From: Tubiluchus corallicola
Lineage: Eukaryota; Animalia; Priapulida
Reading direction: 5' to 3'
DNA length: 16,598 bases
NCBI GenBank assembly: GCA_030141605.1
Contig: JAQGDQ010002049.1
Location: 1 to 16,598 of the forward strand
The notes beneath the pieces were generated by a model, which had not been told where the DNA came from, made no database searches, and worked only from the letters and a program-made list of their open reading frames with translations. How positions within the stretch are numbered: position 1 is the stretch's first letter; the number at the start of each line of letters is the position of its first letter. This document shows positions 525-16,598 of the stretch, piece after piece. The position numbers and the translations under genes are program-made.

Positions 525-1068
525 ATTAAATCACAGAGATTATGAGAACATATAAGAATGATTTTACCAAAGATAAGGTCGACCCTTTCTTCATACTGTA
601 TTAGATCACAGATAATAGGCTCCTCTGTCTACATTTATGCATCATAACCTCTTACTTAACTCACAATAGTAGTGTCAATGGTAGAATTAAATCAATATCA
701 GTGATCAGTTCAGTGAAAGTCAAAGAAATAATCAAAATCAGTTCACGTTAATTCTCATAATTCCGTATAAGCATTTGAAAAGGTTCGTGAACATGGCATC
801 TCAAACTAATTACAAATTTATTAGTCAAATGCGAAAGTAACTCACATTTAGAACTGCAGCTCTAGTGTAGATATTTATGGCAAATATTTATCAATAATTT
901 ACAGCTAATGTTTTGCACTAACTGTGATTCACACCTCTCCATTAAATGAACGGACTTGGCGTTGCTTAAATTTAGATGCTCAGCACAGATTGCAACCACT
1001 TTCAAGATTACGCAATGTTTTCATAATACCAAAAAGTGCTAAATTAGTAACTTAAATACGCTACTTAC

Positions 1069-3507
1069 CATCTCTTCGAGGCACAACAGGTGGTGGCGGA
1101 CTCTGAAAATAAAACTGCTTGGTCGGAGATAAATGACGAGGCATTCCGTGCAGGAATTCTGGGGAGATGTCATCCGTATGGCTCTGAGGAGCACGCCGTC
1201 TGCTGGACGCTGGGGTGCCGGCTCGAACTTCGATGCTCGTCACGAATCTTCCCCCGTCAGATTGGATGTTGTACTTGAAGTCGGAAGCGTTTGCCGAGCT
1301 CCGAAATCCTTCTGGCGGCTCGACGGGCGTCGAGGTGCTGAACCCCAGCGAGGACGAGGTCGGACTAAAATTTGGCGGTGGCAACACCGACAGAAGGTCG
1401 TCCATTCCGCTGCTTGCGACGATCGCGTTTGCACCGACGCGCCGAAAAGCTGACGAATCTCCGACCGTTGAGACTATGTTAGGGGATGGCTTCACTCGCA
1501 CAGGTTTCACAGGTTTGTCGTAAACGTGATTACCGGAATGAATGCTCATGTCCGGATCGGTCGCGACCGGGAAGGCGATTTCCGTCGTTTTGCTCGGCTC
1601 AGCGTCGACGTTAGTATCTCTTTCTACCGGTACGAATCTGTTCTTTTCCGCTGCTTTTTCCGCAATTTCTTTGCTGAACCGCGAGCCTCTGTACTTGCCG
1701 GGGTAATTGTACACTGTGTTTCGGTCCGGAGACGAGTCGACGTCGCTGCCACTACTGCTGCTTTGGTTGGTGTTTGTGTTAACAGCGTCGGTTTTGTACG
1801 GAGAACTGGGCAGGCTGTTTCGTTGTTGTTGCTCCTTTAATCGTTTCTCTCTCGCCTGAGCAGCGGCCATGATTGCATCAGCTAGTACTGTGCTATTCGC
1901 CTCTTTCCCGCTGCACGTTCTGAGCACCTCTAATGCCCCTGCGCCATACTCCACCTGCTTCTCCGTAATCTCGCCGTGCACGTGATTTCGGGAATTTTCT
2001 TCCCTGTTTATTCTGTTTCGGTTTTGGACGACATCGTCGCCCTCCGGAGCCCGGGATGTGCTTATCGACCGCTGCCTGCCCTGAACGAAAGCGGGCGTTG
2101 ACGGATCGGGTTTTGAGCTGGATCCGAAAGACTGCGATCGAGACACGGGCACACCACGCATCTTATTAGACTGGTTATAGTTACTCTCGACATCGCTGTT
2201 GTCGTAATCCGGCTTGGGAATGAACACTTCATCATCCCCATTCATATCACTTCTTGGAGGCTTGCGAGGTGAAGCGGGTAGTGGATGAACGTGGTTAACA
2301 GGTGGTGTCGACAGTGGATGAACTTGGTTAACAGGTGGTGTCGATAGTGGATGAACTGGATTAACAGGTGGTGTCGACAGTGGATGAACTGGATTAACAG
2401 GTGGTGTCGACACTGGATGAACTGGATTAACAGGTGGTGTCGACAGCAGATGAGCGTGGTTAACGGGAGCAGTGTCAGCCGTACGCTGAGTGAAATTACG
2501 AGGCAAAGAGTTCGTATAATATCGATCACCCCCCGAAATGTCGAAAGCAATGATGTCGCTGGCAGCGTAGTGGCTGCTTTTAACGTTCTGCACGCCCAGG
2601 TCCCATTCCGCCTCCGAGTCGGAATCTTGTGAATTCTGGGATTTTTTTGAACAAGGAAAGCAGGCTCGGGGTTTTTCGTCCGTAATATAATGCTTATACG
2701 CCGTAGAATTTACATAACCGTCATTGGTGACGAATTTATTTAACTGTCGCTCGGGTGAATTCTTCGGAGTTTTGTCAAGGTCCACAGATGAACAAAGCTC
2801 GTCCATTTCTTTGCTTAGCTCCTCCATTTCGCAACTGATCATTTCTATATCGTCCACCGAACTTTCTTTCAAATGCAAGTCACTCAAGCGATCGGACAGC
2901 GGAGTAATGTCGGAAGAAATGCTGATTGGTCTTTTTCCCTGTTGACGCCGAGATTCTGAAGGCACGCCTGCTTGCTTTGGAAGCCCGGAATTGTGCAGTC
3001 CGGGCTGCTGCGGCGGACGTTTCATGGGTCGAGCGTATTGCACATTGGGATTCCTGGACGGCATTGCAGGAAGGCTCTCCGTCGATTTGTACAAATCACT
3101 AGGACCAACTCTTGAGGATTTTTGAGATTCAACCACCGGACTACTTGCTGTAAAATCGGGGATGGCCACGTTCGCTTCCTGCTGGTCCTTCAAGTTTGGA
3201 GAACTTGCGTACTGCTTGTTATTGTACATTTTCCGGCGTGCGTATCGACTGGGCACGCTCTGCTTCAACTTGTCGACAAATTTAGCAAACGGTGCATTAG
3301 ACTTGGCATTTCCAGTATTTCCACCAGGCGGAGCCGCTTCCTCGCCCTGCCGGTGAAATATGTCTTCCAGTTCCTGAGCAGTGATACGTCGTGCAGCCGG
3401 CCGCGAGCGAATGGAGGCAGTCTTTTTGTCATCGTCCTGCTGCATGGGAGGGATACTTCGAACTGATCCGCTCTGCAACGACTGACGTTGATTTTGTAGA
3501 CTAGCGG
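1069..3507 (-). CDS. SHANK: SHANK large proline/serine-rich exon (813 codons)
   Basis: Extends the 805-aa ORF. Acceptor cttttag at 3508-3510 is in frame with the upstream phase-1 exon. A consensus donor G|GTAAGT at 1068 lies before the ORF-track stop. Contains PPxxF motifs and a C-terminal PPPPVVPRR. Confidence 0.9.
2280..2470. repeat. Coding 33-bp tandem repeat (~5.5 units) encoding LSTPPVNPVHP
   Basis: Unit agtggatgaactggattaacaggtggtgtcgac occurs five times, plus a degenerate copy, inside the large exon. Confidence 0.95.
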
Positions 3508-3589
3508 CTAAAAGAAAAAAGAATTTATCACTAAGACGGATTAATTTTACGCTAACGACCAGAATAGTGTTAGTGAATTAAAAATCCTA

Positions 3590-6071
3590 CAATTAAAAAA
3601 CAGGGAAAAAGAACGAACGGGAACACGGAAAATCACCAGGAACGACTAGTACTAGTGAAGTAATTTTTGGGGGGTTTTTTGTTTATACTACTTATACGTT
3701 GAAAAGATACAAGTACGTAGAGAAAACACAGAAGCATACCAAAGACAGTAGGAAAAGACACAGACTAGTAGCAGTTACAAAATGGTAGACATGACAAGAC
3801 ACAGACTAGTACCAGTTACAAAATGGTAAACATGACAAGACACATGACCAGTAGCAGTTACAAAATGGTAGACATGACAAGACACAGACTAGTACCAGTT
3901 ACAAAATGGTAAACAAGACAAGACACAGACTAGCACCAGTTACAAAATGGTAGACATGACAAAACACAGGCTAGTACCAGTTACAAAATGGTAAACATGA
4001 CAAGACGCAGACTAGTACCAGTTACAAAATGGTAAACAAGACAAGACACAGACTAGTACCAGTTACAAAACGGTAAACATGACAAGACACAGACTAGTAC
4101 CAGTTACAAAATGGTAAACAAGACAAGACACAGACTAGCACCAGTTACAAAATGGTAGACATGGCAAAACGCAGGCTAGTACCAGTTACAAAATGGTAAA
4201 CATGACAAGACGCAGACTAGCACCAGTTACAAAACGGTAGACATGTCAACATGCAGACTAGTACCAGTTACAAAATGGTAGACATGTCAACACGCAGACT
4301 AGTACCAGTTACAAAATGGTAAACATGACAAGACGCAGACTAGTACCAGTTACAAAATGGTAAACAAGACAAGACGCAGACTAGCACCAGTTACAAAACG
4401 GTAGACATGTCAACACGCAGACTAGTACCAGTTACAAAATGGTAGACATGTCAACACGCAGACTAGTACCAGTTACAAAATGGTAAACAAGACAAGACGC
4501 AGACTAGCACCAGTTACAAAACGGTAGACATGTCAACACGCAGACTAGTACCAGTTACAAAATGGTAAACATGACAACACGCAGACTAGTACCAGTTACA
4601 AAATGGTAAACATGACAAGACGCAGACTAGTACCAGTTACAAAATGGTAAACATGACAAGACGCAGACTAGCACCAGTTACAAAACGGTAGACATGTCAA
4701 CACGCAGACTAGTACCAGTTACAAAACGGTAGACATGTCAACATGCAGACTAGTACCAGTTACAAAATGGTAAACAAGACAAGACGCAGACTAGCACCAG
4801 TTACAAAACGGTAGACATGTCAACACGCAGACTAGTACCAGTTACAAAATGGTAAACAAGACAAGACGCAGACTAGCACCAGTTACAAAACAGTAGACAT
4901 GTCAACACGCAGACTAGTACCAGTTACAAAATGGTAAACATGACAAGACGCAGACTAGTACCAGTTACAAAACGGTAAACATGACAAGACGCAGACTAGT
5001 ACCAGTTACAAAACGGTAAACATGACAACACGCAGACTAGTACCAGTTACAAAACGGTAGACATGTCAACACGCAGACTAGTACCAGTTACAAAATGGTA
5101 GACATGACAAGACGCAGACTAGTACCAGTTACAAAATGGTAAACATGACAAGACGCAGACTAGTACCAGTTACAAAATGGTAAACATGACAAGACGCAGA
5201 CTAGCACCAGTTACAAAACGGTAAACATGACAAGACGCAGACTAGTACCAGTTACAAAATGGTAAACATGACAAGATGCAGACTAGTACCAGTTACAAAA
5301 CGGTAAACATGACAAGACGCAGACTAGTACCAGTTACAAAACGGTAGACATGTCAACACGCAGACTAGTACCAGTTACAAAATGGTAAACATGACAAGAT
5401 GCAGACTAGTACCAGTTACAAAACGGTAAACAAGACAAGACGCAGACTAGCACCAGTTACAAAACGGTAGACATGTCAACACGCAGACTAGTACCAGTTA
5501 CAAAATGGTAAACATGACAAGACGCAGACTAGTACCAGTTACAAAATGGTAAACATGACAAGACGCAGACTAGTACCAGTTACAAAACGGTAAACATGAC
5601 AAGACGCAGACTAGTACCAGTTACAAAACGGTAGACATGTCAACACGCAGACTAGCACCAGTTACAAAACGGTAGACATGTCAACACGCAGACTAGTACC
5701 AGTTACAAAACGGTAAACAAGACAAGACGCAGACTAGTACCAGTTACAAAATGGTAAACATGACAATTATTAACATCTGTTGGGTCCATGCTGGTTTGTG
5801 ACTGACTAGTGATTTTATAGTTCTGGATTTCTCCCTTGTGCTTTTATCTGCTGTCCTTCTGTGTTTTCCCTATGTGCTTAAACCCTTTCGGTGTTTATAA
5901 GCTTTTTACGTACGAATGATACAAACAAAAAACTCCCAAAAAATCAGTTCAGTAGTTCTAGTAATTGCTGGTGATTTTTCCATTTTTTTGTCATTTTTTT
6001 CTTGAAGTGAAGAACTATAGTGGCAGCCAGAAACATAGAGCATGTTCTTCTTTTTCCTTGTTTTTTAATTG
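3590..6071. mobile_element. Foldback/MITE-like element with imperfect long terminal inverted repeats and an internal 41-bp minisatellite
   Basis: caattaaaaaacagggaaaaagaac (3590) is inverted at gttcttctttttccttgttttttaattg (ends 6071). 3627-3688 is an imperfect inverse of 5919-5981. No TSD or coding capacity seen. Confidence 0.65.
3757..5765 (+). repeat. 41-bp minisatellite, ~49 units (cagactagtaccagttacaaaatggtaaacatgacaagacg)
   Basis: Head-to-tail units with a few recurring variants and no unique spacers. Confidence 0.97.
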
Positions 6072-8656: not shown

Positions 8657-8818
8657 CAATTAACCGACTGAATCAATTAACCGATTGAATCTATTAACCG
8701 ATTGAATCTATTAACCGATTGAATCAATTAATCGATTGAATCTATTAACCGATTGAATCTATTAACCGATTGAATCTATTAACCGATTGAATCTATTAAC
8801 CGATTGAATCCATTAACC
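8657..8818 (+). repeat. 17-bp minisatellite (ctattaaccgattgaat) x ~9.5
   Basis: Direct tandem units. One inverted degenerate unit at ~8619-8635 suggests the array sits in a TA-flanked MITE at 8608-8826. Confidence 0.92.
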
Positions 8819-10735: not shown

Positions 10736-11153
10736 ATTAATTAAAGTAAAATGACATTTACTGATAAACTACAACGGCAATCATATTTGCAACGGCTGTA
10801 ACATAGCGAGCATCCTTCAATCGTAGCTGTTGGTACCAACTTTGAAAAACATTTTTTGTACAGCAGGTAAAAAGTCACAGTACCAGAGGTACCTATCTTA
10901 TTTAGATTGCACACATGTGCAGAGATTTTCGTGTTTAAAAACTTCTCTTGAATGTTAAGGCTGGTTTAAACTTTTGAGGTTTTACACTGTGAAATTATGA
11001 GCTATAATAGTCGCAGTCAAACAAGGAGGCAAAGGTGTATGTATTCAATATCTTATTTTCTACTTTTGCAAACATGAAGTTAATTAGTTTGCCATGAACC
11101 AGTCAAACAATTTCTATTTGCTTATTTTTCAGATAAGACACTATGGTTGATCG

Positions 11154-11643
11154 TTAACCGAGCCACTGGGGGGGGGCAAGCCAGCCCAACTCGGTGACGG
11201 TCCCAAGCCCGGATAAATAGGGAGGGTTAGGGTCAAGAAGGGCATCCGCCTGTAAAAACTGTGCCAAAACCTTCTATGAATGAGTCGGTGAGACTTAAAG
11301 GGAAAGTCCACAAAGAAGTGGTCAGACCTGCTCTAATCTATGCGCTGGAAGCAGCTTCTCTAAAGAAGACCGAAGAGAAGAAAATGGGTGTGGTGGAGAT
11401 GAGGATGTTGAGATGGATGGTGGAAATAACAAGAAGAGATAAAATTAGAAATAATAATATCAGCGGAACAGTAAAAGTTGTGGAAGCCTCGCAAGATTGC
11501 GATGGTATGGACACCTGAAAAGAAGAGTCGGTGAAGATCATGTGGGAAGGGAGGACATAAATGAAGAGATGGTCAACAACAGGAATGCGTGGAGAAGACT
11601 CATTCACAACGGCGACCCCGCATAGGGAAAAGCTGGGAAGAAG
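11154..11643 (+). mobile_element. Internally deleted RTE-clade non-LTR retroelement with 5' twister ribozyme, copy 1 (more decayed)
   Basis: 19-bp TSD with 2 mismatches (aagacactatggttgatcg 11135-11153 / aagactctacggttgatcg 11644-11662). (GAA)n tail. RTE C-terminal relics VVRPALIY..E, EMRMLRW...TRRDKIRN, RLRWYGH and WRR..GDP*. Near-identical to 14244-14740. Confidence 0.92.
11155..11228 (+). ncRNA. Twister ribozyme (type P1), degenerate copy
   Basis: UAA-CCGA-GC-[CACUG..CGGUG]-ACGG UCCCAAGC CCGG-AUAAA-UAGG-GAGGG. Core loops are intact, but P2 (11160) and P4 (11197) each have a mismatch. Confidence 0.8.
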
Positions 11644-12040
11644 AAGACTCTACGGTTGATCGCTGCATCAGAAATTTTTAGGAAGGATCCGCTGATTTCG
11701 CATAAATATAATCTGGTCAAAAACTGTAAAAAAATTTCCAGTGGTTTAATGCATTTGGGATAAATCGTGTAAAATAGAAATGGAAAGGCGAAAAACAAAA
11801 CGCTTGGCACCTGCTCACATGAGTGACATTCTCAATGGGCAACATTAAAACTCACAACCGTTTTGCAAATATCTATGTGGTTATCTTTACACATGCACTT
11901 AGCCTAACCTCCAATAATGCAAATGTAATCAATCCACCTAAGTCTTGTGTTTAAATAAGCTTGAAGGTGACTAAAGTTACTTGCAACTTCAGCAACATAC
12001 AACCCCACCCCCTCCCCTACAAGATGCTGATCTCGCCTAC

Positions 12041-14186: not shown

Positions 14187-14240
14187 CTAAAATGAAGTAG
14201 CGTGAAATTGATATCATTTCAGGTAACTAATACTGACAGC

Positions 14241-14322
14241 AATAACCTAGCCACTGGGGGGGGGGGGAGGCAAACCAGCCCAACTCAGTGCCGGTCCCAA
14301 GCCCGGATAAATAGGGAGGGTT
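14241..14322 (+). ncRNA. Twister ribozyme (type P1), apparently intact; predicted cleavage U14243^A14244
   Basis: UAA 14243-45; P2 CCUA 14246-49 / UAGG 14312-15; pseudoknot GC 14250-51 / GC 14301-02; P3 CACUG 14252-56 / CAGUG 14286-90; P4 CCGG / CCGG around loop UCCCAAGC; L1' GAGGG 14316-20 pairs with loop 4. The core GCCGGUCCCAAGCCCGGAUAAA is the same as the rice twister core as I recall it. Confidence 0.9.
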
Positions 14323-14740
14323 AGGGTCAGGAAGGGCATCCGCCTGTAAAAACTGCGCCAAAACCTTCTATGAATGAGTCGGTGAGACTTAAAGGTAAAG
14401 TCCATAAGGAAGTGGTCAGACCCGCTCTAATCTATGGGCTGGAAGCAGCTTCTCTAAAGAAGACAGAAGAGAAGAAAATGGGTGTGGTGGAGATGAGGAT
14501 GTTGAGATGGATGGTGGGAATAACAAGAAGAGATAAAATTCGAAATAATAATATCAGAGGAACAGTAAAAGTAGTGGAAGCCTCGCAAGATTGCGATGGT
14601 ATGGGCACCTGAAAAGAAGAGTCGGTGGAGATCATGTGGGAAGGGAAGACATAAATGAAGAGATGGTCAACAACAGGAATGCGTGGAGAAGGCTCATTCA
14701 CAACGGTGACCCCGCATAGGGAAAAGCTGGGAAGAAGAAG
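14244..14740 (+). mobile_element. Internally deleted RTE-clade non-LTR retroelement with 5' twister ribozyme, copy 2 (better preserved)
   Basis: Perfect 17-bp duplication aatactgacagcaataa (14229-14245 / 14741-14757). gaagaagaag tail. RTE 5'UTR-type motif gtcaggaagggcatccg..taaaa joined directly to RTE ORF C-terminal relics. Confidence 0.94.
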
Positions 14741-14819
14741 AATACTGACAGCAATAATCAGAATGGGATATTTTGTTAATGACGATGACGTTGATGGTGG
14801 TGATAACAACGATCATTAC

Positions 14820-16030: not shown

Positions 16031-16454
16031 CCGTATTTTCCCATGTATAAGAGACCCTTGTGTATAAGAGACCCCTTCAATTTTTAGGCAAAAATTCTGG
16101 AAAAAAGTTTTTTGGTAATGAATAACTTTATTCATCATAGAAATCATTAAATTCCTCATCACTCTCATCAAAAATATCAACTGGAGTCAGACCTTCAGCA
16201 ATTCCAGCCAGTTCATCATCAGAGGAGTCACTCTGCTCAAAAATGGCATTGTCCTCTGTGCCGTCCATGGCATTGGAGATGCCACACTTCTTGAAAGATT
16301 TAATAATGACCTCTGGCTTTACACCATTCCATGCCTTGAGGACCCAGCTGCAGACTTCTCCAAGGGTTGGCTTACTCCCATGTATAAGAGACCCCCTATT
16401 TTTAAAGTGAAAATTCTGAGCAAAAAAGGGTCTCTTATACATGGGAAAATACGG
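16031..16454 (-). mobile_element. Internally deleted pogo-family (Tc1/mariner superfamily) DNA transposon, 424 bp
   Basis: 27-bp perfect TIR ccgtattttcccatgtataagagaccc / gggtctcttatacatgggaaaatacgg. TA TSD at 16029-30 and 16455-56. Subterminal tgtataagagaccc repeats. Relic transposase C-terminus WVLKAW...IIKSFKKCGISNAMDGTED with an acidic tail. Confidence 0.93.
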
Positions 16455-16598
16455 TAACCAAAAATTTACAATTCTAAAATACTGTGAATATGCGAAACAA
16501 ACAAAATAAAAATAGAAAATGAAAGTTTATCAAAAAAAAATTGTAGAAACCTGACCCAGTTAACACGCTAAAACGATGCACAAAATACAGCTTACTAG

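Follow-up and report, generated by a model that had tools for sequence, protein, structure and literature searches.

The window (the whole 16,598-nt stretch of DNA analyzed) contains two plus-strand copies of one short retroelement, which we conclude is probably a high-copy, internally deleted RTE derivative that is predicted to be freed from host transcripts by a twister ribozyme and is likely copied in trans by a full-length relative. Copy A lies at 14244-14740 (497 nt) and copy B at 11156-11646 (491 nt); no third copy was found in the window. Judged from its sequence, the element is an internally deleted (SIDE-type), or bipartite, non-autonomous LINE derivative of RTE type. The first-pass annotation had described a non-autonomous RTE derivative, and this is borne out both by a head in common with a full-length relative (locus L002) and by the C-terminal ORF remnants of the element.

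Structure of the element

In each copy a twister-P1 match is followed by an RTE-type leader, an ATG, three C-terminal ORF pieces, and a (GAA)n tail, and each copy has its own target-site duplication (TSD). The features of copy A, all on the plus strand, begin with a head at 14244-14324, which starts from the AA of the predicted cleavage product and holds P2, P3, P4, both pseudoknot partners, and G14316. Next comes a 45-nt 5' leader (14325-14369) that is common to the related loci L001, L002, L003, and L004. The ATG and three more codons (14370-14381) lead into a large in-frame deletion, the junction being placed by mapping onto the protein P0015. Beyond it lie ORF remnant 1 (14382-14587), which corresponds to P0015 residues 841-909 at 75% identity; remnant 2 (14585-14647; residues 914-934), behind a small frameshifting deletion; and remnant 3 (14648-14719; residues 965-986 and the stop codon), behind a deletion of about 30 codons. 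A short 3' UTR and a (GAA)4 tail close the element (14720-14742). Because three separate segments of P0015 are kept, we count three deletions. What had first been read as a single direct jump from the leader to the end of the ORF is thus an ATG with three codons, followed by three deletions.

Copy B (11156-11646, plus strand) is built as copy A. The two are 94.6% identical, differing by 21 substitutions and by 6 nt in the length of a G run, and apart from those 6 nt their alignment is free of gaps. It follows that all deletion junctions are common to both copies. Together with the comparison of flanks, this upholds the earlier claim of a second copy with the same junctions and its own TSD; the copy had been placed at 11154-11643, but its start is 11156 and its end 11646. 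The G run lies in the P3 loop (14256-14267 in A, 11162-11168 in B) and counts 12 in A and 7 in B, with one to four additional Gs seen elsewhere.

The twister head

Both copies match the Rfam twister-P1 model (RF03160) in cmscan, copy A at 14239-14324 with 57.7 bits (E 6e-11) and copy B at 11151-11230 with 42.6 bits (E 1.3e-6). The covariance model thus finds the predicted ribozyme over its whole length (model positions 1-68 of 68) in A and in B, but both scores fall below the gathering score of 67.2, in an alignment with a weak P1 and a long P3 loop. Helix pairs were read by script, as MAFFT misplaced the 5' strands of L002 and L003. In copy A all pairs are formed in P2 (4/4), P3 (5/5), and P4 (4/4), and the loop UCCCAAGC, the UAA and GAGGG catalytic loop, and both pseudoknot partners are present. 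The complete twister fold that had been reported at the start of the element therefore stands as regards P2, P3, P4, the pseudoknots, and the catalytic residues, but not as regards P1, where two of four pairs form. We take G14316 to be the general-base G, an assignment made from twister structures. Copy B has one mismatch in P2 and one in P4, and its P1 consists of two wobbles only. Minimum-energy folding, which does not model pseudoknots, gave alternative structures and did not recover the full twister; these folds were weighed neither for nor against the ribozyme. Among five related sequences, which make a thin test, P2 differs on both strands between elements.

According to the available text of PMC11662667, twisters tolerate flaws in P1, P2, and P4, and do not tolerate them in the pseudoknots and catalytic residues. 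Given these tolerances, both copies are predicted to be able to cleave, copy A more surely, and the predicted site of self-cleavage in A is U14243/A14244.

Ends and insertion signature

An exact 17-bp repeat lies on either side of copy A (14229-14245 and 14741-14757, plus strand). Its terminal AAs coincide with the end of the GAA tail and with the start of the element, so the true TSD is 13-17 bp long; the repeat that was first called a perfect 17-bp TSD is exact over 17 bp, but its two end AAs are ambiguous. For copy B the left TSD runs from 11135 to 11155 (core 11141-11153) and its partner from 11644 to 11664 (core 11650-11662), so that the duplication measures 13 bp if one mismatch is allowed, or 21 bp if three are. 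When 1000 random pairs of flanks were drawn from the window, an exact repeat of at least 13 bp arose in two, the longest being 15 bp, and none reached 17.

Both copies begin with AACC, as predicted for the product of cleavage. The U that precedes the cut (U14243 in A) and the P1 5' strand (14239-14242) lie within the left TSD and are host target DNA, not element. The available text of PMC6007223 gives the signature of RTE insertions as a T run near -10 of the TSD and a TSD start that matches the tail repeat, and this signature is present in all three insertions examined (A, B, and one in L001). In 3/3, TTT falls between positions -13 and -8 relative to the start of the TSD, against a background of 8-12% of positions; the sample is small, and the TSD start of B is ambiguous.

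Parent protein and ORF remnants

With segment 14370-14588 as query, 92 of 120 candidate proteins were matched, the best of them at 73-79% identity and with full-length proteins included. The remnants are 75-78% identical to the C-termini of P0004 (962 residues) and P0015 (987 residues), both of which are single frames with Exo_endo_phos and RVT_1 domains and belong to clusters whose named members come from decapod crustaceans. All three remnants lie C-terminal of RVT_1 (P0015 571-804), so the reverse transcriptase and the endonuclease are gone, and the remnants have no Pfam match. A single ORF with an endonuclease ahead of a reverse transcriptase is seen in P0004, P0015, and L002 (962-1019 residues). 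A search of the PDB found no RTE structure, the best matches being L1 ORF2p and R2. The name RTE is our assumption from the architecture, the leader, the tail, and motifs, and the protein matches are themselves unnamed or "uncharacterized".

The ATG lies 18 nt past the leader motif in the element and 20 nt past it in L002, where it opens the long ORF. Together with remnant 1 it forms an 80-codon frame (14370-14612) that is open in both copies. In relatives the N- and C-terminal stretches of the ORF both contain VRLK, and these are candidate look-alikes for the large deletion.

Relatives of the element

Exact or near-exact patterns of the head were found nowhere in the viral contigs, and the strict form was also absent from the metagenome contigs. 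A loosened pattern gave two loci in metagenome contigs, two in genome contigs, and none in viral contigs, and all four (L001-L004) match twister-P1. In L002 the twister and leader precede an endonuclease-reverse transcriptase ORF of 1019 residues that is 42.6% identical to P0015. Since L002 pairs the head with a full ORF, we conclude that an autonomous element naturally has this head at its 5' end.

L001 carries, at 3945-4254, a distinct twister-headed element of 284 nt with a GT-repeat tail and a 13-bp TSD that ends right before AACC. The body of this element has no match to the RTE proteins compared, and a headless copy of that body lies at about 809-981 of the same contig. L003 and L004 are short contigs titled as bacterial genomes; they contain twister-headed RTE sequence, are identical around the head, and are probably animal DNA within those assemblies. 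In both, three short repeats of the head's first bases lie ahead of it.

Abundance of the deleted form

Among 24 sequencing runs compared, three runs of one sample contain 73-79% of the words of the element, and contigs were mapped for four of the 24 (X1, X4, X5, and X7). None of the 24 is listed as RNA, which carries no information on expression. In X1, which may be the source of the window itself, summed contig depth is 546,000-1,221,000 on the element and 150-207 on its flanks, and it is roughly level from head to tail. Summed contig depth is no copy number, but the data point to thousands of mostly full-length copies.

The figures for loose contig ends refer to the six rows listed per run, beyond which there were 444 and 95 further rows. 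Against copy A in X1, 19 contigs end at 14244 with an agreement of 0.47, which implies that their upstream sequences are unrelated; this is the sole 5'-terminal row among the six listed. Among the rows listed, 35 contigs diverge behind 14742. Against copy B, seven contigs end at 11156 and 43 behind 11647 among the rows listed, and a row of 17 at 11168 reflects the length of the G run. Copies preceded by T would show their 5' end one base earlier. The prediction that 5' ends gather at the cleavage position agrees with these rows, among which 14244 is the best-supported 5' loose end in X1 and is joined by 11156 of copy B.

Some contigs depart from the element at the third deletion. In X1 four leave behind 14646 and six rejoin before 14649, and in X4 the count is 10. 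Read by eye, these contigs encode the first and last parts of the 30-codon stretch lost at deletion 3, in a form near P0015, and because they carry this sequence we conclude that an undeleted relative is present in X1. Undeleted sequence was seen at this one of the three junctions. In X4, which comes from another study, contigs bridge deletions 1 and 3, the flanks are not covered, and depth rises towards the 3' end, a profile that was not taken as a sign of RNA. One X4 contig leaves at 14514 into the sequence of the 30-codon gap, several single-contig joints skip other parts, and further deletion derivatives of the element exist. X5 and X7, from other organisms, have mainly the twister and leader in common with it. 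No empty-site allele was found among the joints listed.

The deleted form is thus present in multiple dispersed copies with their own TSDs and many unrelated flanks. The two TSDs, the common junctions, and the contigs that bridge junctions in X1 and X4 support the earlier suggestion that the deleted form is what moves.

Proposed mechanism and alternatives

We propose that the element spreads in four steps. First, a sense-oriented copy would be transcribed as part of some Pol II transcript. The twister would then fold with a dispensable P1 5' strand supplied by upstream host sequence, and it is predicted to cleave between U and AA to leave a 5'-AACC end. An RTE protein would bind the kept 3' end and the (GAA)n tail, nick the target about 10 bases downstream of a T run, and prime reverse transcription. 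In the resulting insertions the TSD borders directly on AACC, and what spreads is the form with all three deletions.

The differences between A and B within the ORF-derived part (14370-14716 and 11276-11622) raise another matter. Of 15 differences, 11 are synonymous in the RTE frame, where 4.05 would be expected (P 1.8e-4) or, with CpG strata, 4.8 (P 7.8e-4); the test is post hoc and has two copies only. In the other two frames the synonymous differences number 0 and 3. This excess is at odds with a non-coding element that simply decays neutrally. It would be expected if the 80-codon frame from the native ATG were under selection, or if copies of the element traded sequence with coding RTE copies, and the in-frame junction of the large deletion with the ATG and the frame left open in both copies are in keeping with this. 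However, the excess, most of it on the side of A, occurs before the frameshift and also persists past it (4/5), where the RTE frame is untranslated. At 14410, 14482, and 14488 the majority in the runs differs from the RTE proteins and the minority alleles give the RTE residue, and because the majority departs at these positions, protein constraint on a master copy is disfavored. Nor does any of 11 protein matches span the fused frame from end to end. We therefore regard selection or exchange as rather unlikely; moreover, either adds to the explanation by twister release and copying in trans and does not replace it.

A second alternative accepts a deleted RTE mobilized in trans, but holds that the twister is a relic, with the 5' end determined by an internal Pol II promoter within the head or leader. 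Transcription of bipartite LINEs is very probably carried out by Pol II, and LINE 5' ends drive transcription, as stated in the available parts of PMC5786205, and conservation of the leader in distant elements would suit a promoter. Yet in A, B, and L001, and in the top 5' loose-end rows listed, the 5' end coincides with the bond predicted to be cut, and precisely what would be lost on cleavage is missing from the element. The catalytic positions are also intact, and P2 has changed on both sides between elements. A relic twister thus appears improbable, and release by an active one is preferred.

The first-pass annotation had called the element a "retrozyme-like SINE", and neither word fits. 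It has no Pol III head (no tRNA, 5S, or 7SL match and no B box, with one A-box-like string inside the ORF remnant), which removes it from the Pol III SINEs and agrees with the claim in the same annotation that a tRNA head is missing, as do a negative tRNA search and Rfam scan. A retrozyme would be a ribozyme-bounded unit that spreads by way of circular RNA, and the element shares with retrozymes that it is non-autonomous, bears a ribozyme, and is flanked by TSDs. In the available text of PMC7761336, however, retrozymes are defined by hammerheads and circles, whereas here each copy has a single 5' ribozyme, a twister and not a hammerhead, and copies are not tandem. The Rfam scan found no second ribozyme at the 3' end that could free a circle and no hammerhead in the window; the 3' end and tail are LINE-derived, and no tail-to-head joint occurs among the rows listed, beyond which copy A has five more. 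We consider a retrozyme very improbable. That A and B arose when a single decayed LINE fragment was duplicated locally as DNA, as their spacing of 3 kb and their same orientation might suggest, is refuted by unrelated flanks, different TSDs, a thousands-fold depth, and the many unrelated flanks at both ends.

Relation to known systems

The closest precedent for the head is Perere-3, an RTE-clade element of Schistosoma mansoni whose 5' end carries T-variant twisters, with any NAA being cleaved according to the available text of PMC8501958. As described there, Perere-3 resembles the present element in its 5' twister-P1, its start at AA, a TSD that abuts the cut and supplies the P1 5' strand, its short-repeat tail, and its unspecific targets. 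It differs in being described as autonomous, with an endonuclease-reverse transcriptase ORF, whereas the present element has lost both domains; no mention of internal deletions was found in the main text of that paper.

Ribozyme-headed elements with internal deletions are known from Drosophila, where the available text of PMC3414825 names them SIDEs. The R2 SIDEs and R2/R1 SIDEs likewise have a 5' self-cleaving ribozyme that an internal deletion has brought next to the 3' end of a LINE, are not Pol III elements, and are moved in trans, as the present element probably is. RIME and NARTc, cited in the available parts of PMC3414825 and PMC5786205, can be grouped with R2 SIDEs as close systems. 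In contrast, the ribozyme of the R2 SIDEs is HDV-like and the elements are rDNA-specific and rare, whereas the present element has a twister, is dispersed and very abundant, and keeps three ORF pieces.

Bipartite non-autonomous RTEs are common, as reported in the available text of PMC5786205 and PMC7245038, and the former links the bipartite habit of RTEs to 5' ribozymes. RTE-N families, RTESINE1/2, WALLSI3, and Bov-A, as described in those parts, share with the present element RTE 5' and 3' ends and a lost ORF; unlike it, they are mostly UTR pieces for which no twister is named. Compared with the bipartite RTEs described, the present element has four parts and still contains about 340 nt of coding sequence. 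Retrozymes, in the available text of PMC7761336, are likewise non-autonomous retroelements with a small ribozyme, but they are bounded by hammerheads and have circular RNA, and the present element has no bounding hammerheads. The same source, citing work in preparation, already reports the conservation at RTE 5' ends of twisters that are truncated yet active.

No paper on a twister-headed non-autonomous RTE was found in a literature search that covered few subscription journals; such families may be recorded in Repbase, in Dfam, or in the supplements of PMC8501958. As far as sequence comparison goes, the parts (a twister on an RTE, bipartite RTEs, and ribozyme-headed SIDEs) are each known separately, and what appears to be new is their combination.

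Genomic setting of the two copies

The surrounding gene lies on the minus strand and comprises ankyrin and SH3 exons, a PDZ-like exon (recognized by eye; this piece has no Pfam match), and a long low-complexity exon. From this order of exons, we presume the gene to be Shank. Copy A is antisense within an intron between two ankyrin-repeat exons (14187-14819, minus strand, with splice sites read from the sequence), which without the insertion would be 121 bp long, and copy B is antisense between the SH3 and PDZ-like exons. Both of two copies are therefore antisense, which is no evidence of an orientation bias. Since both lie antisense in introns, the host pre-mRNA would not contain their sense RNA and would not be cut by them, and A and B are probably passive inserts.

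The window also contains other repeats. A 41-bp satellite occurs at 60-516 (11 copies) and 3755-5766 (49 copies), in opposite orientations that flank the long coding exon. A 33-bp tandem repeat (5.3 copies, 2280-2453) lies inside the minus-strand frame 1061-3577 and encodes 11-residue repeats, and a 17-bp tandem repeat (9.4 copies, 8659-8818) is partly self-complementary and has chance miRNA matches. The minus-strand frame 16128-16526 matches DDE_1 weakly (E 0.031), has an inverted repeat at 16368-16460, and is probably the remnant of a DNA transposon.

Implications for RTE evolution

We tentatively hypothesize that RTE derivatives headed by a twister make up a class, widespread and unnamed, of short promoter-free elements that could reach SINE-like abundance without Pol III, the cleavage site being rebuilt each time from the target; this is possible, although we would not call it likely. 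The 284-nt element of L001 would be a second, unrelated example of the proposed class. In the boldest form of the hypothesis, if true, sequence trading with coding RTEs or a selected 80-codon frame would explain the synonymous bias.

The finding would join two published lines, namely twisters on RTE 5' ends and the shedding of short non-autonomous derivatives by RTEs. It would also be a concrete example of what Kojima suggested, namely that RTE, Ingi, and R2 yield such derivatives on account of a 5' ribozyme. Thousands of near-identical copies with differing flanks would lend themselves naturally to testing whether spread is decided by target sequence and orientation, and the family could further be used to test whether sense intronic copies are purged for cutting host pre-mRNA. 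In what it has kept, the element marks a minimal set of RTE cis signals for mobilization in trans.
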